This document shows positions 1-9,743 of a DNA stretch of 35,194 bases, piece after piece. The stretch is from a virus (lineage: Duplodnaviria > Caudoviricetes): positions 1 through 35,194 of the IMG/VR virus record IMGVR_UViG_3300042564_001419, one strand, 5' to 3'. The translations under genes were made by a program, and so were the position numbers. Below the pieces are notes generated by a model, which saw only the letters and a program-made list of their open reading frames with translations, was not told the origin of the DNA and did not search any database. Position 1 is the stretch's first letter. Every line of letters begins with the position of its first letter.

Positions 1-3000
1 ATGCCCATCTTGGCGGCCAGCCTGCGTGTGCGCTTGATATCGGCCTCAAGGTTCGCAATCAGCTGGCGGCGCTGGCCGGCATCGATCTGCTCGCTGGAGT
101 CCAGATCGATTGGCCGCACCTTGATGCCGAGCGTCTGCGGGATCGCATGCTTAGGCTGCACGGGCAGGCCGTCCCGACCAAAGCCGGTGTAGTCCTTGCC
201 GATGCCAGGAATCACCTCGCCCGTGGAGTAGGCCAGCATCTGCATGCTGCGGTCCCAGTGGTAGCTGTTCAGCGCAATGGCCGGCGAGAACTGGCGCCAG
301 AGCCACTCGGCCCGCTTCTGTGCGGCCTCGCCCGTCGTGTCGTCCTTGTCGACAACGTCGCGCCCAGTGAACATATCCCTGTTCATGATCATCGCGCCGA
401 ACGAAGTCAGCAGCGGGTTGCTCGGCGTCAGCGGCTGCAGGATGCTCACGCCGCCGGCGTTGTTGTTCGCGTCGAACAGGTCGCCGCCAGGGATGAAGCG
501 GGCGATGTCGAGGAACAGCGGCAGGCCGGTCGCGTCGTCCTGGCCAAGACGGATCGTCTTCTCGGTGAAGAACGCAGACTGGCCGCGCATCCAGATAGGT
601 AGGTTCTCGCGCTCCAGCTTCTCCTGCTCGGCCACCTTGGCACGGTACTCCGGGTCCGTTGCCCAGCGCTTGAGCAGCTCCAGGCTGGTCTCCTCGTCGT
701 CCTCGTCGCCGGCGATGGCATACATCAGGGTGTTCAGCCCCATGATCAGGCCAGCCGGGGCGGCCACGCGCCACGGGGTCTCCAGCGCTGTGCGCACCGC
801 GGCAGGCACGAACTTGTAGGTGTAGCTGAAGAACGGCAGCGCGAAGTCACGCACGATGCGGGCGCCCTTCGGCAGATCGTCGTAGGCGAAGATGTAGGTC
901 ATCGCCCAGTCGACTGCGTCGTCGGGGTCCAGGCCACGCTTGCGCGCGTCACGGTAGAGCAGGTATCGGAAGAACTTGTCCTCGGCCTCGTAGGCCGTGC
1001 CGAGCGGCTTGCGCATCCACCACGCCAGCGCATTCCACGTTGCGTTGATGCCCTTCTCGATCTTGTCCTCGGCCTTGCCGGCCAGCAGGCGCAGCTGCTC
1101 GGGCATGTTCTGCAGCAGCTCTTCATCGTTGAAGGTGCCACCGAACAGGCCTGCGTCTACGCCCTCCTTCACCATCGGATCACGCTTGATCAGATCGCGC
1201 GCGGCGCCGATGTACTTGTGCTGGTCCCAGTAGCTAACGCCGGCGAAGTGCGCCATCGTCAGGTTGGAGACGATGTTGTTCATGTGGCTCACCGGGTTCA
1301 GAACGGTGTTGTGCGTTGGGATCATTGACCGGCCAGCCAAGTAGAGGCGCGACTCGGACGAGACCTGAATGCAGCGCACAGGAACGGAATCAATCATTGT
1401 GATATTCACAACCTGACGAGTCAGCGCCCGCGACTTCCTCTGTGTCAGGGCTGGGCGCTGGCGGGCGGCTTTCCGCGGCAGCAGGAACACGGGGCGCTCT
1501 GATGGCGCATGGAAGCGGATGTTCCAGGCCTTGCAGATCACGCCAGACCCAGGCATCACGACCTCTTTGAGCGTGGCGACAGCCTTGAACCCAAGCGACG
1601 CGACAAGCTCAAGGAAGTTGTCCCTAAGCACTTCGCTTGCGGTGCAGAACGTAACCTTGCCGGCCTCGTCAATGGTGCCGTCCGTATCCATCAGGCCTTG
1701 AAGCAGCAGCATCCGCTGATCTGGCGATGCGCGCAGGTAGGCCTGCGGGATGTGCTTGTTCAGCTTGAGCCCGAGCCGGGACAGAGTTGGGGCCAACAAA
1801 TCTTTGCGCTGGCGATAGCCTGAAAAGCCGACCGTGTATGTGATGGCGAGGCCGCGCGGATCTTTGCGCTGCCCACCAATTCCGAATCCAAACCGGGCGA
1901 GGTTTGCCTGGATCTCTGGCGCGTCCTCCACGCTGGATGTGATTGCGCTACTCCGTGAGCTGCCGTCACCAAGCCACGCGCCGATGAAGTACGGGTGGAC
2001 GGGCAGATCGGCGGCTTCGGTCTGCAGTGCGCCAGCAACCGGGATGGAGTGGACGTTGTTGTTCCTGGCGCCGCCATACTTGAGCGTGGCCAGGATCTGC
2101 TCGGTGGTTCGGACACCGGGCTTGCCCTGCGCGACGGTGAACCACAGGTGCTCCGCATCAGCCGTGATCTTCTCTCCATCAGAGAACTCGACGACGTAGC
2201 ACTTGCGGCCATGCTGGACCGGAGTGGTGAAGACCACATCGCAAACGGCGCCGTTCTCGTCGAAGATCTTGTCGCCCTCCTTGATGTCGCCCATCGTCGT
2301 CCAGCCGGTCGGCGTCGGGATCGGCGTGTCCAGCGCCAGGGCTTTACCCTCTTTCCACAGAGCCAGACCCTTGCGGTACGCCTGGAACACAGCCTCTGCA
2401 GCATCGTCTTGGAACATGCGGCCAGCGGTCAGGTGGGCCAGCACATGCTCAGGGACGTACATACCGGCCAGCTTGCCGTAGACGTTGGCCTTGGTGTCCT
2501 CGACCTTGGTCTTCGGCACCTGCACCCAGACGTCCTTCGTGTCGGTGCGCGGACCCTTCGCTGCCAGCTCGGGGTCGTTGGCCATCGACTCGTACATGCG
2601 GCCCAGGGCGATGTCCTTCTGGCTGTTGTTGTAGCCCATCACGAAGCGGAACATGGCGTCGCGGATCTCGCCCATGTTGTCGCGCTCCTCGCGGGTGAAG
2701 TCGCGGTGCACGTTCAGGTAGACGTCCGTCTCCGGGTCATAGCCCGGCTCCAGCTTCCAGCCCTCTGCTTCCCACTCGGCGAGATCCGCGGCCATGATCG
2801 TCTTGACCATGCCGCGTCGCTTCAGGTTGCCGCCGCTGATGCCCTTCAGCGCGCGCGGCCGGCGAGTCAGTGCAGCGGCTGCAGCCTCCCAGGCGTTGCC
2901 GGTCTTCGTGCGCAGCTTGCTCTCGTAGAAGCGCGGCAGGTAGCGGCCAGACCATGCGTCGACGGCTTCCTGCGACAGCATGCCCAGGCGCACCAGCTCG

Positions 3001-6000
3001 GTCGACTGCGCGGACATGATGGCCGATATCGACTGCGCCATCTTCAGCACCTCGGCCGGCGGCCTAATGCGAGCGTTAAGCTCCTTCTCGACGATGTCGG
3101 AGATCATCATGCGCTCGCCTTCGCTCATCGTCGACATGCCGTCGGCGACGTCCGAGATCAGCTCCTGCGCGGCTGCAATCTCCTGCTTCATCTTGCGCAT
3201 GTAGCGGGACATCTCCTTCGTCATCGGCCGCATGCTGAACTTGGTCAGGATGGTGTTGGCGATGTCGGCGATCGCGCGGTACAACTTGGAGCCGGCGCCC
3301 AGGCGCAGCTGGCCCACCTCGTTGCGGCTGATGCCCCACGAGTCGGTGGACTTGTCGCTGAAGTCGATGCGCGCGTCGGCTGGGTCGAAGGTGCCGCGGT
3401 TGCCGATGGCGGATTTGATCTGCTCGGGGCGGAAGGCGACGAAGTGCCGAGCACCGCTGCGCTGCTCGATCACATAGCCGTCATAGCCCGCGTCCCGTGC
3501 ATCGCGTGGCGAAAGACCCTCGTTGGCAGCCCACTGCCTATCAGTGACTGTGTATGGGTTGCTAATCGTCAGGTAAACAGGCCTGACGTTCGCCCCGCTT
3601 TCGCTGCCGTAGCTGCTCGCCTCGCCGGGGTCGGTAGTGAAAAACGCCCCGACTTCATCGCCCCAGTTACCGTCCACGTTGAACACAGAGAAATCACCTG
3701 CGTTCGTCCCGTGATACACCACCAGCGGCTTGCCATCGGCATCCACCACCTTGGAGTCGCCGAACCACCGCTTGAATGCCTCGGTCTCGGTCTGGTCGCT
3801 GAAGTCGATTCGCCCATCCTCCCAAGTCCAGCTCGGCATCAGGCCCGTCTTCTGATCGGCGAAGACGGTGTCCTCCACCTGGGCCGTGCGGTTGGCCTCA
3901 CCATGCGGGCCGTAGTTCAGCCAGCTGTTCTGGCCGCGGGTCTCGCTTGTGATGGCGCCCAGCGCACTGCCGGTGAACAGGCGAGTGTGCGCCTGCCATG
4001 CATTCTCTTCGCCCTGCGCGCGGAAGCCTGCGCCCTCCAGCCCGTGGCCGAATGCGTCGTGCACGGCGCGGAACAGGTCATTGGCCAGCACACGCTTGCG
4101 CGGGCCGCCGAGATCGCCGACGGGCCAAGTGAATCCGGTGTCGGCCAGGAGTGGATTGCCGGCCGGGTCGAAGTCACCGCTGCCGAAGCCGCCCTCGGTG
4201 GGGAACACGCCCATCGTCTGGTTGGCGCGGATGTCGCGCATCGCATTCCACGGGGTCGATGCGTATTCCTGATTGTCGGCGCGGCCCATGTCCATGAACC
4301 AGAACTTGTAGCCGGCGGCGACCAGGGCCTGATACTGCGCGGTCGTCTGCTTGATCAGGTTCTCGTAGGCCTCGCGCACAGCCGGATCTCGCGGCGCGTG
4401 CGGCATGTCTTCGTAGGCCTGGGCGATGCGAGCGGCGCGCGCCGGGTCTACTTCGGCGTAGCTCGACTGGCGCTCCAGCTTGATGCCGACACTGTCGGCG
4501 TAGCTCTTCGCCACCGCGACAAGGCGCGGATCTGGCCCGGTGAATCCGCGCACACGCGGTGCGCCGGGCAAGGGATCGAACTCGCCTACTTGCGCTTGAC
4601 GCCCGGCGGCAGTTTGGGCTGCGGCTTGCCCTGCGCCAGAAGCTGTTTGTTCTGGTGCTGCATCTTGGCCAGACGGTACGCGCCGTCCGCTTGCTCGTTC
4701 ACCGACTCCGGCGCCCTCTTGGTCGCTGAAGTCGATGGTGCCTGCGTCGCCCCATCCGTAGCGCTCGCTGAAGTCGTCGAAGACGCGCTGGACCCGCGGC
4801 GCGAGAACAGTTCTGGCCCAGTCGAGAACATCGGATCGTCCGGAGGCACTAATCCTTTGTCGGTAAATTTGCCCATTTGGGTACTCCTTCCAGTCGTTGG
4901 TTGGCATGTCGCCATCGCTGGCGAACTGGCGCATCGTGCCGTCGGGTAGCACATCGCCCGCCACCTTGACAATGTCGGCGTGGAGCTGGCGGTTCTCGAT
5001 GATACCGAAGTTCACAAGCCTGATGCCCGTCGGCGCCGAGATGAATGCGAACTTGCTCTGCCAGTCAGCCTTGCCGTTCGCGTCCATCCACTTGCCGACG
5101 GCGCGCTCCAGATCGGCTACCTCGCGCGGGTTCAGCGGGCGGCCGATGTCCAGCTCGACGCCATTGGCCTGGGCCTTCGTGCTGGCGTAGAACGGGCGGT
5201 GCCAGCCCACACCCTCTTGGCGCGCGACCAGACCGAGCACGGACGCGTAGACGTTCAGCGCCTGCGCCTGGGCCGGGTCGACTCGCGTCTTGCCGGCATC
5301 GCCTTTGGCCGGCGCCATTGCCACCATCTTCTGCGAGCTGGGCGACACCTCACCCTGCCATACGCCAGGGGCCAGGATGTCGTTGTCGACCATCAGGCCC
5401 AGATAGTGGGCCAGCAGATCGCGCCCCTGGTCGTCCAGCATGGCAGCCTGCACGGCCTGCTGGAACTCTACCTGCTGCGCATACGGTGCGTCGTGGATGC
5501 CGGGCAGTGAGCCAGACGTCCGCCCTGGGCGAGCTTCGAAGCTGATCTGCCCGATGTGCCGCAGCAGTCCGTCGGCGAAGTCGAACTTCGCCTTGGATGT
5601 GTCGGCCTCGGTCGGCACATGATCGAACGAGTGCTTGAGCCAGTTGTCGCGGTGCCGTTGCGCATCGAGGATCACGCGCACCTTCTTCTGCTTGCCGTCC
5701 TCGTCGCGCTTCTTGTCGAATCGAATCCAGCCCTTCTTCTCGCTGCTCGCCTCGGTGTCCTTCTTGACACCCTCGTTCTCCATGCGGGCCTTCATGGCCA
5801 CCCAAATCGCGGCCTGCACTTGCTGCGGCTCCCAGCCCATCTCGGCGGCGATGCGATTGGTCTCGTTCTCCATGAACGCGTACTGCGTGCTGGTCGGCGC
5901 GTCGTTGTCGTACTGGCCGGCGCGCATCATCCACATATCGATGGTGGCGCCTTGCTTGCCTTCGGTGCTGGGGTCGATCTCACGCAGCAGGTTGTGAAAG

Positions 6001-9000
6001 AAGTTGCCCGTCTTCTCGCCAGACCAGAACGCATCGACGTCATCCAGGGCCGCCTTGGCTTTGGCATCCATCACGCCTGTCTTCACGCTGATCGGCTGGC
6101 CAGCCTTGTACTGCGCCCACGCGCGCAGTGCGAACGTGGTGTTGGCGTCGACCTTAGCTTGCGGGCTGTAGATGGCCAGCAGGGCCACGAACTTGCGCGC
6201 CTCTTGCACGTTGCCGCCGGCCATGCGCAGCACCTCGCGGCTGCTGTTCTCGTACCAGAAGCGGCCGCGCTCACCCTCAAGCGTGAGCTTCATCAGAAGC
6301 TTGCGCAAGTGCGGGATCTTTCCAGGCGTGTCGAACTTTGCAGGTGCGCCGACATACTTGCCGGCTCGCATCGGCAGCTTGTCTAGCACTTCACCTGCAC
6401 GGCTGTACGCGAGGTTGTTACCCTCCAGTGCGCGCCGCACGCGCGGCGCATCGGTTGCCGTGAACACGAGACCCTGCTTGGTGTCGCGCCCGACGACGCC
6501 GTCAGGCAGCTTGGCGCGGATCTCGGCTGCGTCGCCGGTGATGCGGATGCTGCCGTCCTTGAATGCGCGCGCCTCGTAGCCGCCGACGGTCTCGGCCTTG
6601 CCGCGCTCGGCGTCGGCGTAGTCCGTGTCGGCCGCCGCATCGGCGTCGCCCTTCTTTCCATCAAACCCCTTGCGCTTCACCTGCTCGGCGAACACATCCG
6701 ACAGGACGTCATAGACGGCCTGCATGTCGCGCGCGTAGTTGGCCTCATTGGCGCCGCGGAAAGCAGACACCATCTTCTCCAGCGACTTCAGGATGGCGCC
6801 AGCGATCTGGCCGAAGTCGTCGTCGCCGACCTTGTCGCGCAGCTTCTCCCAGAACGACCGCTCCTTGGCGGCCTGCTGGGACATGAAGGCCATCATCTCC
6901 TCGTCGACCTTCTCGTCGGCGTAGCCAGGGTACTTGGACTTGAAGCGCTCGCGCTCCTCCGCAGACACCAGCGGTGCGTCGCCACCGAACACTGCGTCGT
7001 GCGCGCGCTGCTTCAGATCCTTGTCGAGACCGTGATAGCCCTCGTGCACTGCGAGCGCGATAGGCGCGTCGCTGGCGTCGATACGGATGGCTGTGGCCTG
7101 CACCTTCTTGCCGTTGACCGTGATGGTCTGGTTGGCCGCATTCATCGACGTCTTGCCGCTGGTGGCCTTGAAGAACCACACCGGGCGGCCCAGCGTTGCG
7201 GACAGGACCTTCGTCAGCTTGGTGGCGACCGAGTCGTCAGCAGCGACGGGCTCGATCTTGACCGTCTCGCCGCGTGCAATCCGGCGCCCGTCAGCCAGAC
7301 TCTGGGCCAGCCCGGCTTGGGTGTCCATGCCCAGCTCGGGCGTGCCGGTGCCTGCCGTGGTCACGACGGGCTCGGTCGTCTTGACAGTCGTGGCGCCGCC
7401 GGTCGCGCGCTCGATGCCTGCAGCCTGGGCTGCGGCCAGCTTGTCAATGGCGGCCTGGGCTTTTGACACGCCGGGCGATGCGGGCGGCGTGTCGACCGTT
7501 GGTTGCGCGGCCTCGGCCTGTGGCATCTGCGCCTGCAGCGACGCGGGCACGCCGGGTGATGCGGTCGCGGTGTCGATGGTGGTGCCGGCGAAGCTGCGCA
7601 CCTCGGGCAGCAGCGACGCGATCGGGGCGTTCAGCCGGGTGACGCGCACCGGGCCACCATCTGCGGCCGCCCACTGGTGGTGTCCATCCACGACGTAGCC
7701 GTCGGACGACACGAGCACGCGCCGGCCGGTGTCGCCTTGCGCTCGCGCAGCCTCTACCTTGCTTGGCGACACCTCTGCCTGCGTCGCCTTGAGGCTGTCG
7801 GCCTGCACCACCTCTTGCGTGGTGCTGATACCCTTGTCCTCTAGGTGGCTGACCAGGGCCTCGCGCTGCTCCGCGGGAACCTGGGGCATCTCGGCGCGCG
7901 GGATGCCGAGCGACTTGGCTGCAGGCGGGAAGGCCTGCCAGTCGGTCACGGCAGGCTCAGGCGCCTTTGCCTCGGGTGCTCGCGCCTGGGGTGCGCCGAT
8001 TGCCTCGGCGACCATCGGGACGCGCCCGTCGGGGTGGTCCATGAGTGGCGACACGGTGGCGCGAATTGTGTCCACGCCAGCAGCGCGCGCGGCCATGACC
8101 CGCCGATGCCCGTCAACAACGCGCAGCCGTCCATCCTCCATCTCTACGACCGAGATGTTGGGCGGCGTCTCGCCAGCCGCGGCGCGCTGCGTGTATGCGT
8201 CAAGCTGCGCGCGCTTCTCGGGCTGCAGCTGGCCGTCCTCCGTCAGCTCTGGCAGATACAGGGCACCAACGGGCAGCTCGCGGACCTGTGCGACCGGCGT
8301 GCCGCGCGCGTCTGGGTACGGCAGCTTTAGCCATGATCCGACCTTCGCTTCATTCTCAGCCTCAAGCCCTGGCATATCTGCGACGGGATCGGCGTCCTGT
8401 GTCTGCGCCAGCGGCTGCACGGTCGGGGCGCCTGCGTCGTTCTGGCCAGCCTGCGGGGCTGTCGGCACGATCAGGTCAGGCAGGCCGGCCGAGCGGGACT
8501 CGGGGCTGGTGAAAACAACCGGGCGGCTGATGGCGCGCACGGGCTGCTGCGGCATGGCGCTGACGTCGGCGTTGTCGATCTCGCTGGCGATCAGGCTGTC
8601 CGTCAGCGCGCTGGGCGCTGCAGGCTGGCCAGCCGTGTAGTTGATGGCCGCCTCGGCGTCCCGGTAGGTCTGACCGGCACGCTGTGCGGCAGAACGGACG
8701 CCAGCAGGCGCGCCGAACACGAGGCCCTGGCCAACGGTCTGCACCGCTGTGTCGGCGGCTTGCTGCAGGTAGTCAGCGAACGTGGCCTGCGGGTTCATCG
8801 CAGCCGGGCCGTACTTGTCGGCGGCGAACTGGATTGCGGTGGTCAGCTGCTCGCCAGGGATCTCCTTGACCAGCTGTATGCCCAGCATCTTGGGCAGATC
8901 CTTCGTGGCCACTTTGCCCAGGCCTGCGCGGATGACGTTCAGTTGCTCGGTCAGGCCGAAGCGCTCACCCAGCACCTCGGCCGCGGCCATGATGTTGGCG

Positions 9001-9743
9001 CGCGCGAAGGACTCTCCGCCTTCGAAGCCGGCACGCCGGGCCTCGTCGTACTCCTTGCTGGCAGTCATGCCGTACAGGGCGCCGAGCGTTGCGCGGACGC
9101 TGCCAGTGGCCACGCCGATGCCTAGGCTTGGCAGGTTGGCGACAACGCTCTCGCCGACGCCTGCCACCATTTTGTTCACATAGTCGGTCTGGTTGCCGAC
9201 GGTGTTCTCGCCGAACTGGTCAGCCTTACTCGTGGCGCGACGCAGGAAGTCGCTCGCCTCGTCTGCGCCGATCGCGTCGGTGACCATCGAGGCAGCGCCG
9301 GGCAAGACGGTGGAGAGACCGACGGCACCCTTGGCCGCGCCCTTCACGAACGCCTGCGCGCCGGTGCGCTTGCCGAGCACCCCGTCGATCGCCTCGCCGA
9401 CGACCATGCCAACCTCGGCCGATCCGGTCAGCGGCTTGATCTCGGCGCGACTGCGGCGCGGCGCGGCTGCCGCGGCCTCACCGGCGCGGATGGTGCGGGA
9501 GTCTGCAGCGAAGTCGATCTTGTACGCAGGGTCAGGCGTCGACAGCGGGTCTGCCGTGACCTTGGCTCGCTCGCCAGAGAAGTTGCGGTCGGCCCGCTGC
9601 TGCTGCTGCACCCGCTGGCCGAAGAAACTCTTAGCCCGGTCGATGATGCCCGGTGCGGGCGCCTCGCTGGGCAAGTCATCAAACGACAAAGCGCCCGAAG
9701 GCGCGTTGTTCTCATCTGGCAAGTCGTCGAAATTCAGAGACAT
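1..9743 (-). CDS. Giant polyvalent internal virion/ejection protein (>3,240 aa, 3' end beyond window), intein-containing
   Basis: ATG at 9743 overlaps the upstream stop (TGATG) and begins MSLNFDDLPDENN. No minus-strand ORF in the track terminates in this frame below 9743, and hand translation is open. Motifs: ParB-like VVDGHRR (~8100) and VVDGHHQW (~7680), HEGYH..EEMMA zincin (7032-7046), HhH-like domain (~5790-6300), HDAFGH domain (~3810-4600), ART-PolyVal (~3370-3790). Confidence 0.9.
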   Translation of the reverse strand, partial: MSLNFDDLPDENNAPSGALSFDDLPSEAPAPGIIDRAKSFFGQRVQQQQRADRNFSGERAKVTADPLSTPDPAYKIDFAADSRTIRAGEAAAAAPRRSRAEIKPLTGSAEVGMVVGEAIDGVLGKRTGAQAFVKGAAKGAVGLSTVLPGAASMVTDAIGADEASDFLRRATSKADQFGENTVGNQTDYVNKMVAGVGESVVANLPSLGIGVATGSVRATLGALYGMTASKEYDEARRAGFEGGESFARANIMAAAEVLGERFGLTEQLNVIRAGLGKVATKDLPKMLGIQLVKEIPGEQLTTAIQFAADKYGPAAMNPQATFADYLQQAADTAVQTVGQGLVFGAPAGVRSAAQRAGQTYRDAEAAINYTAGQPAAPSALTDSLIASEIDNADVSAMPQQPVRAISRPVVFTSPESRSAGLPDLIVPTAPQAGQNDAGAPTVQPLAQTQDADPVADMPGLEAENEAKVGSWLKLPYPDARGTPVAQVRELPVGALYLPELTEDGQLQPEKRAQLDAYTQRAAAGETPPNISVVEMEDGRLRVVDGHRRVMAARAAGVDTIRATVSPLMDHPDGRVPMVAEAIGAPQARAPEAKAPEPAVTDWQAFPPAAKSLGIPRAEMPQVPAEQREALVSHLEDKGISTTQEVVQADSLKATQAEVSPSKVEAARAQGDTGRRVLVSSDGYVVDGHHQWAAADGGPVRVTRLNAPIASLLPEVRSFAGTTIDTATASPGVPASLQAQMPQAEAAQPTVDTPPASPGVSKAQAAIDKLAAAQAAGIERATGGATTVKTTEPVVTTAGTGTPELGMDTQAGLAQSLADGRRIARGETVKIEPVAADDSVATKLTKVLSATLGRPVWFFKATSGKTSMNAANQTITVNGKKVQATAIRIDASDAPIALAVHEGYHGLDKDLKQRAHDAVFGGDAPLVSAEERERFKSKYPGYADEKVDEEMMAFMSQQAAKERSFWEKLRDKVGDDDFGQIAGAILKSLEKMVSAFRGANEANYARDMQAVYDVLSDVFAEQVKRKGFDGKKGDADAAADTDYADAERGKAETVGGYEARAFKDGSIRITGDAAEIRAKLPDGVVGRDTKQGLVFTATDAPRVRRALEGNNLAYSRAGEVLDKLPMRAGKYVGAPAKFDTPGKIPHLRKLLMKLTLEGERGRFWYENSSREVLRMAGGNVQEARKFVALLAIYSPQAKVDANTTFALRAWAQYKAGQPISVKTGVMDAKAKAALDDVDAFWSGEKTGNFFHNLLREIDPSTEGKQGATIDMWMMRAGQYDNDAPTSTQYAFMENETNRIAAEMGWEPQQVQAAIWVAMKARMENEGVKKDTEASSEKKGWIRFDKKRDEDGKQKKVRVILDAQRHRDNWLKHSFDHVPTEADTSKAKFDFADGLLRHIGQISFEARPGRTSGSLPGIHDAPYAQQVEFQQAVQAAMLDDQGRDLLAHYLGLMVDNDILAPGVWQGEVSPSSQKMVAMAPAKGDAGKTRVDPAQAQALNVYASVLGLVARQEGVGWHRPFYASTKAQANGVELDIGRPLNPREVADLERAVGKWMDANGKADWQSKFAFISAPTGIRLVNFGIIENRQLHADIVKVAGDVLPDGTMRQFASDGDMPTNDWKEYPNGQIYRQRISASGRSDVLDWARTVLAPRVQRVFDDFSERYGWGDAGTIDFSDQEGAGVGERASGRRVPSGQDAAPEQTASGAGQAAAQTAAGRQAQVGEFDPLPGAPRVRGFTGPDPRLVAVAKSYADSVGIKLERQSSYAEVDPARAARIAQAYEDMPHAPRDPAVREAYENLIKQTTAQYQALVAAGYKFWFMDMGRADNQEYASTPWNAMRDIRANQTMGVFPTEGGFGSGDFDPAGNPLLADTGFTWPVGDLGGPRKRVLANDLFRAVHDAFGHGLEGAGFRAQGEENAWQAHTRLFTGSALGAITSETRGQNSWLNYGPHGEANRTAQVEDTVFADQKTGLMPSWTWEDGRIDFSDQTETEAFKRWFGDSKVVDADGKPLVVYHGTNAGDFSVFNVDGNWGDEVGAFFTTDPGEASSYGSESGANVRPVYLTISNPYTVTDRQWAANEGLSPRDARDAGYDGYVIEQRSGARHFVAFRPEQIKSAIGNRGTFDPADARIDFSDKSTDSWGISRNEVGQLRLGAGSKLYRAIADIANTILTKFSMRPMTKEMSRYMRKMKQEIAAAQELISDVADGMSTMSEGERMMISDIVEKELNARIRPPAEVLKMAQSISAIMSAQSTELVRLGMLSQEAVDAWSGRYLPRFYESKLRTKTGNAWEAAAAALTRRPRALKGISGGNLKRRGMVKTIMAADLAEWEAEGWKLEPGYDPETDVYLNVHRDFTREERDNMGEIRDAMFRFVMGYNNSQKDIALGRMYESMANDPELAAKGPRTDTKDVWVQVPKTKVEDTKANVYGKLAGMYVPEHVLAHLTAGRMFQDDAAEAVFQAYRKGLALWKEGKALALDTPIPTPTGWTTMGDIKEGDKIFDENGAVCDVVFTTPVQHGRKCYVVEFSDGEKITADAEHLWFTVAQGKPGVRTTEQILATLKYGGARNNNVHSIPVAGALQTEAADLPVHPYFIGAWLGDGSSRSSAITSSVEDAPEIQANLARFGFGIGGQRKDPRGLAITYTVGFSGYRQRKDLLAPTLSRLGLKLNKHIPQAYLRASPDQRMLLLQGLMDTDGTIDEAGKVTFCTASEVLRDNFLELVASLGFKAVATLKEVVMPGSGVICKAWNIRFHAPSERPVFLLPRKAARQRPALTQRKSRALTRQVVNITMIDSVPVRCIQVSSESRLYLAGRSMIPTHNTVLNPVSHMNNIVSNLTMAHFAGVSYWDQHKYIGAARDLIKRDPMVKEGVDAGLFGGTFNDEELLQNMPEQLRLLAGKAEDKIEKGINATWNALAWWMRKPLGTAYEAEDKFFRYLLYRDARKRGLDPDDAVDWAMTYIFAYDDLPKGARIVRDFALPFFSYTYKFVPAAVRTALETPWRVAAPAGLIMGLNTLMYAIAGDEDDEETSLELLKRWATDPEYRAKVAEQEKLERENLPIWMRGQSAFFTEKTIRLGQDDATGLPLFLDIARFIPGGDLFDANNNAGGVSILQPLTPSNPLLTSFGAMIMNRDMFTGRDVVDKDDTTGEAAQKRAEWLWRQFSPAIALNSYHWDRSMQMLAYSTGEVIPGIGKDYTGFGRDGLPVQPKHAIPQTLGIKVRPIDLDSSEQIDAGQRRQLIANLEADIKRTRRLAAKMG
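1308..2342 (-). mobile_element. Class 3 (Ala1) intein with LAGLIDADG homing endonuclease, 345 aa, in frame in the giant protein
   Basis: N-junction WKEGK|ALALDTPIPTPTGWTTMGDI; block B ADAEHLWFT; endonuclease motifs PYFIGAWLGDG and LLLQGLMDTDG; block F VPVRCIQV; C-junction MIPTHN|TVLNP. The Trp/Cys/Thr (WCT) triplet of class 3 inteins is present. Confidence 0.93.
3369..3794 (-). other. ADP-ribosyltransferase domain (ART-PolyVal-like) within the giant protein
   Basis: FKRWFGDSKVVDADGKPLVVYHGT..GAFFTTDPGEASSYG..VRPVYL..NP..GYDG..FVAFRPEQIKSAIGNRGTFDP, the characteristic motif series of this family. Confidence 0.85.
4586..4876 (-). CDS. Putative nested out-of-frame small protein (96 aa) inside the giant gene
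   Basis: AAGGAG (4884-4889) lies 7 nt upstream of ATG 4876. The product reads MGKFTDKGLVPPDDPMFSTGPELFSR...KLPPGVKRK, with stop TAG at 4586. Confidence 0.5.
   Translation of the reverse strand: MGKFTDKGLVPPDDPMFSTGPELFSRRGSSASSTTSASATDGATQAPSTSATKRAPESVNEQADGAYRLAKMQHQNKQLLAQGKPQPKLPPGVKRK

Follow-up and report, generated by a model that had tools for sequence, protein, structure and literature searches.

The window analysed here is the whole 35,194-nt stretch of the Caudoviricetes record IMGVR_UViG_3300042564_001419, a virus record estimated to be ~60% complete. On its minus strand a giant gene runs off the window edge, and the genes upstream of it on the same strand encode a major head protein, a head-tail adaptor/portal and a terminase (Table 1). 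The giant gene is polyvalent in that several unrelated effector domains share one polypeptide encoded among virion genes. Pfam recognises ART-PolyVal and DUF7178 within it and has no name for either of the two domains that flank the nested reading frame described below, the one PII-like and the other marked by an H-D-x-x-G-H motif; LPD38, zeta toxin and GGDEF domains are present in relatives of the gene. The DUF7178 domain displays a T-I-D-x-W-M motif and a helical pattern, which presumably recall HhH-GPD DNA glycosylases. Further along the protein, an intein-like insertion with a homing-endonuclease-type middle (window ~1296–2354, minus strand; giant-protein residues ~2464–2816) matches intein-bearing terminase PHROGs and terminates in H-N followed by T, which we take to be an intein motif.

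Table 1. Features of the giant gene and its nested reading frame, with a further +1 family (window positions unless a locus is named).
Feature	Position	Strand	Remarks
Giant polyvalent gene	3..9743 (open at window edge)	-	>3247 aa; closes virion operon
DUF7178 domain, main frame	5787..6272	-	Pfam E 5e-15; upstream of PII-like domain
PII/SAM-lyase-like unnamed domain, main frame	4740..5750	-	residues 1332-1668
Shine-Dalgarno (SD) AAGGAG	4884..4889	-	7 nt spacer to nested ATG
Nested +1-frame gene, 96 aa, stop included	4586..4876	-	ATG 4876-4874, TAG 4588-4586
Nested module 1, residues 1-28	4793..4876	-	strand, DDP[MI][FY], G, F/V-S motif
Nested Ser/Thr-rich spacer	4706..4792	-	overlies last helices of main domain
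Nested module 2, residues ~58-80	4637..4705	-	acidic patch, G-A-x-R-L-A-K-M-x-H-Q-N
Unnamed H-D-x-x-G-H motif domain, main frame	3813..4574	-	directly downstream of nested ORF
56-58 aa helical +1 ORF family before ART-like domain	L019:1119, L010:1619, L011:1619, L018:927, L030:1025, L031:1119		

The original prediction of a perfect AAGGAG 7 nt before ATG 4876, opening a 96-codon out-of-frame ORF, proved accurate, on the minus strand and with N- and C-termini that match those it quoted. It had further placed this ORF over the end of a domain and a low-complexity linker in locally AT-richer sequence, and both hold: main-frame codons ~1623–1719 underlie the nested ORF, comprising the final 45 residues of the unnamed PII-like domain followed by a G/R/A/Q-rich linker, and main-frame third-position GC content (GC3) falls to 0.35 at codons 1681–1720, the minimum of 81 blocks of 40 codons each in a gene averaging 0.83. 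GC3 amounts to 0.28–0.36 over module 2 and is back up past the nested stop. In the window alone, the open +1 frame (P = 0.88) and the SD (−8.3 versus a null of −7.8 kcal/mol; p 0.87) both lie within chance under synonymous recoding, so that relatives have to decide the case; the main-frame residues W-K-E largely set the AAGGAG. Two in-frame alternatives exist upstream of 4876, namely ATG 4954 (SD −7.0) and TTG 4972, but the intervening +1 frame is interrupted by stops in relatives. Positions 4518–4946 recur identically in a contig from another run (X7 record 11).

Relatives were gathered by searches with the main domain (5750–4740) in viral, metagenome and genome contigs. Once duplicates and loci with a match ending short of residue 300 had been removed, the set comprised 47 relatives plus the window, spanning 26–84% identity and 34–68% GC. 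The ATG occupies the same column in all 48 distinct loci, heading a +1 ORF of 51–114 aa, and an SD of −4 kcal/mol or stronger precedes it in 48/48, as compared to 21% of 14 other +1 ATGs; several relatives attain this SD with residues other than W-K-E. The main-frame residue at the nested ATG is N in 41 loci, D in 5 and H in 2, encoded invariably by xAT. T-ending codons at this column number 24/24 in clusters at 80% identity (11.5 expected) and 13/13 at 60% (6.3 expected), with nominal P values of 1e-8.6 and 1e-4.7 that overstate the significance because the clusters are still related, and in ten other conserved N/D/H columns upstream the T fraction is 0.22–0.59. Similarly, the +1 frame stays open for 50 codons in 24/24 clusters versus 8.6 expected (13/13 versus 4.4 at 60% identity). 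Depressed synonymous variation, which had been proposed as a check, was likewise found, and the constraint begins at the ATG: synonymous-codon identity is near expectation upstream and 0.60–0.77 versus 0.30–0.40 expected over the first four blocks of 10 columns counted from the ATG. Within the overlap, identity at third codon positions climbs from 0.32 to 0.54, with positions 1 and 2 unchanged.

Conservation extends beyond the start and the open frame to the nested motif residues, which are retained down to 26% main-frame identity. The DDP[MI][FY] peptide is always found at the end of the PII-like domain (48/48 distinct loci), and nested residues 27–50 have an S+T fraction of 0.40 versus 0.25 in the null (24 clusters). 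A search that started from the peptide led to the same place, as 10/10 loci had it in the +1 frame at the end of a PII-like domain with the main frame open; two distant peptide-first loci have DPIYKEG without the usual start context. Ribosome-binding site, ATG, frame and peptide, whose conservation the original prediction had made its first check, are thus kept in 48/48 loci. Judged by these comparisons, the +1 frame 4876–4586 is a selected, conserved nested gene. At least 48 such nested proteins have been picked up by gene callers as hypothetical, and Pfam and PHROG hold no family for either the nested peptide or the main PII-like domain. At locus L094 the ATG is gone and a GTG stands one codon later. 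At L060 (~3170–3570) the main frame is broken near the nested start, with stops 63 codons up and 70 down, and the nested ORF is intact; the break is either an assembly error or decay.

Could the ORF nonetheless be an untranslated shadow, or the constraint stem from RNA structure, a DNA site or a frameshift signal? We consider this very improbable. The chance-level SD and open frame in the window would fit a shadow, and the conserved main-frame motifs N-G and G-R-x-D could be domain requirements. Yet synonymous positions are fixed at otherwise rare codons (xAT in 24/24, GAT in 22/22 and CGA in 19/24), and ATG and SD stay while the main-frame residues change. RNA structure was set aside as the cause, given the lack of a consensus structure over the region (mean folding z +0.35), in a test that is weak at this divergence because control blocks gave no consensus either. 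As to frameshifting, inspection by eye of 24 clusters found no shared slippery run at the start.

The upstream neighbour was modelled with AlphaFold2 from 41 sequences and, with the peptide absent, reached a pLDDT of 91. Its predicted fold appears PII/SAM-lyase-like with an inserted ferredoxin-like subdomain, and the motifs Q-x-S-x-E, G-x-[WF] and Q-[DE]-G-V-G-W-H are invariant. The family numbers 896 clusters at 50% identity (E ≤ 0.001). In the structure comparison the phage SAM lyase Svi3-3 ranks first (6zm9; Z 8.1, rmsd 3.2, 112/129 aligned, model 54–289), with a borderline Z considering that the next unrelated row scores 7.3 and that, by the tool's own note, best Z values of 7–8 are typical in the absence of a clear match. 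Foldseek gave a best E of 7e-3 against the PDB and, against viral models, returned only unnamed polyvalent proteins at E ≤ 0.001. A PDB sequence search yielded no meaningful match to the domain, the ESM Atlas nothing for the inserted subdomain, and GenBank phages no match to the main PII-like domain, hence no cultured carrier was found.

In the accessible text on SAM lyases, the ligand residues are Gly56, Tyr58, Glu69, Gln104 and Glu105, and expression of a SAM lyase is toxic in E. coli (PMC7877911). By motif order, G129 (24/24) and W/F131 are candidates for Gly56-x-Tyr58, and Q178 (24/24) and D/E179 for Gln104-Glu105. The Glu69 slot (136), as placed by motif spacing, holds S in 16, N in 3 and A in 2 of 24, and the domain may therefore not be an active lyase; the invariant E72 of the first strand might stand in for Glu69. 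The domain may resemble Svi3-3/T3 SAMase and the SAM-AMP lyase, as described in the available parts of two reports (PMC7877911, PMC12255297), in the order of G-x-aromatic and Q-[DE] and in having 6zm9 as its closest match, and differs from them in its inserted second ferredoxin-like subdomain, its extra C-terminal helices, its embedding in a polyprotein, the non-acidic residue that motif spacing places in the Glu69 slot and the missing PDB sequence match. Model and motifs together suggest a ligand-binding or enzyme domain of the PII/SAM-lyase type.

DUF7178 lies directly upstream of this domain in 130/131 proteins with enough upstream sequence among the 150 listed. As a possible target of the peptide it was set aside because the peptide is retained in L083 and L032, two cases only, where DUF7178 is absent. 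In L032, a phage of different layout, the PII-like domain forms a stand-alone gene of 309 aa (2456–3385) with the nested ORF at 3144–3299.

A structure prediction for a complex between the adjacent domain and the peptide points to binding. The input was the domain alignment together with nested residues 1–36 in custom paired alignments, to which the score calibration applies only approximately; in that calibration, 116/157 solved complexes and 2/215 mismatched pairs attained the mark. The complex scored an ipSAE of 0.65 (runs 0.65, 0.74 and 0.64) versus 0.00 in the best of three controls, with at least 41% of contacts shared between runs and a partner pLDDT of at least 54. On the nested side, the predicted interface comprises residues 1–10, 12, 14, 16–17 and 19–28, of which 4–10 are predicted to pair as a strand with domain strand 271–276; on the domain side it includes residues 70–72 and 178–192, and with them the invariant S70, E72 and Q[DE]GVGWH. 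Domain residues 292–328, whose codons are shared with the peptide and where artefactual covariation would sit, fall outside the named interface. Overall conservation is not higher in the interface (0.57) than in the remaining domain (0.54), and PDB searches found no similar complex. Module 1 is thus predicted to bind the PII-like domain over an invariant surface.

What might the nested product do? Our favoured reading, to which we give an even chance, is that it binds the PII-like domain and keeps it, and via the second motif the next domain, off in the producing cell. Ribosomes would use the internal SD and ATG on the late mRNA, whereby peptide and giant protein would be made together. Peptide residues up to 28 are predicted to cover the surface formed by S70/E72 and Q178–H184, a putative counterpart, by motif analogy, of the ligand site of SAM lyases. 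The giant protein would be packaged and injected without the peptide, so that its domains would become active only in the next host; polyvalent proteins are encoded among late virion genes and thought to be packaged (main text of PMC5512222).

The original prediction had gone as far as a hidden partner gene, for example an inhibitor or chaperone, that neutralises the adjacent effector domain. Its gene is strongly supported (48/48 loci) and its partnership is backed by co-occurrence and by the complex prediction; that the peptide neutralises a toxic effector domain, we infer. Linked genetically to their putative effector domains are module 1, in 48/48 domain-first and 10/10 peptide-first loci, and module 2, in close relatives. 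Binding as predicted does not separate an inhibitor from an activator or a structural subunit. The main rival, rather unlikely in our estimation, makes the peptide a positive partner of its domain: it would complete a sheet, determine the oligomeric state, or act as a chaperone in folding or packaging, like Cas11d for Cas10d. Conservation and the predicted strand addition fit such a partner just as well, a catalytic glutamate cannot be assigned to the domain with certainty, and complementary intragenic products are known, Cas11d being one (PMC10327210). Arguing the other way, the domain modelled alone reaches a pLDDT of 91, contacts of the peptide with invariant putative ligand-site residues are predicted, and a separately made subunit would presumably also need packaging and ejection.

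Nor do we expect, and here our doubts are considerable, that the gene is real and directed at another target, be it a host or another phage protein, or tunes translation of the giant ORF, lying near the domain only through shared DNA. Shared DNA by itself explains the co-occurrence of module 1, and family members P0174, P0179 and P0190, with tails or upstream sequence, may mark free-standing genes. Set against this are the complex prediction, which passed relative to three controls, the conservation of motif residues described above, and the finding of a free-standing copy in 0/10 peptide-first loci. More widely, P0174, P0179 and P0190–P0196 have K/E/D-rich or longer tails and may be free-standing genes; searches for their genomic surroundings brought up no further locus.

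Returning to the favoured reading, in which the second motif would serve the next domain, nested C-terminal tails vary with the downstream domain. That of the window (4574–3813) has 426 viral relatives; the ESM Atlas returned only hypothetical viral clusters for it, and its model (6 sequences, pLDDT 40) was too poor for structure search. We surveyed the best 80 of the 426 viral loci, of which 79 were usable. Among these best 80, the PII-like domain is found upstream in only 5/79 usable loci, an SD-led +1 ORF spans the linker in 49/68 distinct loci, the +1 frame runs unbroken through the linker in 42/48 clusters (26.9 expected; +2 frame 14), and an ATG lies within 120 codons in 46/48 clusters. 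The 42 open-linker clusters carry ETE-x-D-G..L-R-[RL]-L-K; the other 6, including the window, carry the variant G-A/K-L-R-[LIV]-A-[KR]..Q-N with a stop just before the domain. The match of the window tail to the motif 2 profile is modest, with an E of 9e-6 for one sequence and a profile that included a close relative.

In phages with different neighbours, module 2 is led by an SD and a start codon of its own, and at L208, a distant context, the two motifs are found joined. Among six GenBank records inspected that have the downstream domain, motif 2 is present in one, other SD-led +1 ORFs in two and none in three, and so the partner is not obligatory for this domain. In the cultured Synechococcus phage MinM2, an SD-led +1 ORF precedes this domain. 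One GenBank phage, MW202722.1 (L231:1226–1621), has two consecutive SD-led +1 ORFs inside its annotated giant CDS, one of 68 aa followed by one of 61 aa that shows AGGAGG and motif 2; the annotation omits both. An ART-like domain behaves comparably. At 6 loci where it sits at another place in the polyprotein, a helical +1 ORF of 56–58 aa with its own SD occupies its linker, and where it follows the PII-like domain, the nested ORF extends as a helical tail over the ART-like domain's linker. At the level of sequence, two domain-linked peptides look fused in the nested ORF of the window, which the original prediction had not recognised. When domains are shuffled, the motifs go with them, each being encoded in the end or the linker of its domain; where two modules meet, the peptides fuse, as in the window.

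Several out-of-frame nested genes are familiar: lambda Rz1 lies in Rz, phiX174 E in D and B in A, and Bacillus comS in srfAB. Among them, Rz1 binds its host gene's product, and comS sits in a giant modular gene. A further example is E. coli gndA, nested out of frame in gnd (PMC11230408). All share with the gene described here the same-strand nesting and a start of their own. As far as the available accounts describe them, however, they are single fixed overlaps, whereas here the nested motifs follow the main-frame domains through their shuffling and become fused accordingly.

In its presumed action, the nested gene would work most like the intragenic antitoxin RpnS, yet out of frame and modular. 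RpnS, too, is a small protein from an internal start in a larger gene that binds and blocks that gene's product, RpnL. RpnS is encoded in frame as the C-terminal domain of the toxin itself, and its role lies in bacterial defence (PMC10327210); in contrast, the peptide here is out of frame, unrelated in sequence to its target and embedded in the gene for a phage virion polyprotein, has motifs assigned per domain, and is only a putative inhibitor. The host gene, for its part, shares with phage polyvalent proteins the giant multi-domain build, ART-PolyVal and a place among late virion genes (Iyer et al. 2017, PMC5512222). The word 'overlapping' is absent from the main text of that paper, and literature searches, which did not extend to most subscription journals, turned up no description of genes nested within polyvalent genes. 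This locus contributes a named target, backed by a complex prediction that passed its controls, and the apparent fusion of two domain-linked peptides.

Is this locus an isolated case? Across 31 giant genes, which total 70,465 codons and are not independent of one another, 49 SD-led +1 ORFs were counted versus 23.0 under recoding, and 4 versus 3.75 in the +2 frame. By a hand count from the list, 17/49 of these ORFs are the nested family of the PII-like domain, leaving a modest excess from other families; further protein-like +1 families were found in G/R-rich linkers. We tentatively propose, with somewhat less than even confidence, that polyvalent genes hold a shuffled +1 layer, made up of one short inhibitor per effector domain, which shuffling fuses into multi-motif antidotes. 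If true, the G/R-rich linkers would owe their composition to immunity genes hidden in them, and every peptide would point to the active site of an unnamed injected enzyme. A hidden partner matched to its domain would offer a directly testable explanation of how a producing cell tolerates the synthesis of enzymes destined for the next host. It would also define a class of small phage genes skipped by annotation, as in MW202722.1, yield natural inhibitors with which unnamed domains could be probed, among them the PII/SAM-lyase-like family with its 896 clusters, and provide a case of overlapping genes evolving as shuffled modules.

Several individual ORFs in these giant genes may be recorded alongside. 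In L107:5210, L108:5213, L111:6620 and L123:6722, a Gly/Ala-rich linker contains a conserved +1 ORF of 67–68 aa with an SD of −10.2, whose product starts with MSAQ and has a GA[VI]SLxEAW motif. SD-led +1 ORFs also occur right after a zeta-toxin domain (L103:11801) and a GGDEF domain (L143:8156), and these two are candidate partners of known enzyme domains. In the window itself, ATG 3736 opens another SD-led +1 ORF (3736–3569, minus strand; 55 aa, SD −8.2) at the front of ART-PolyVal, which reads like a shadow.
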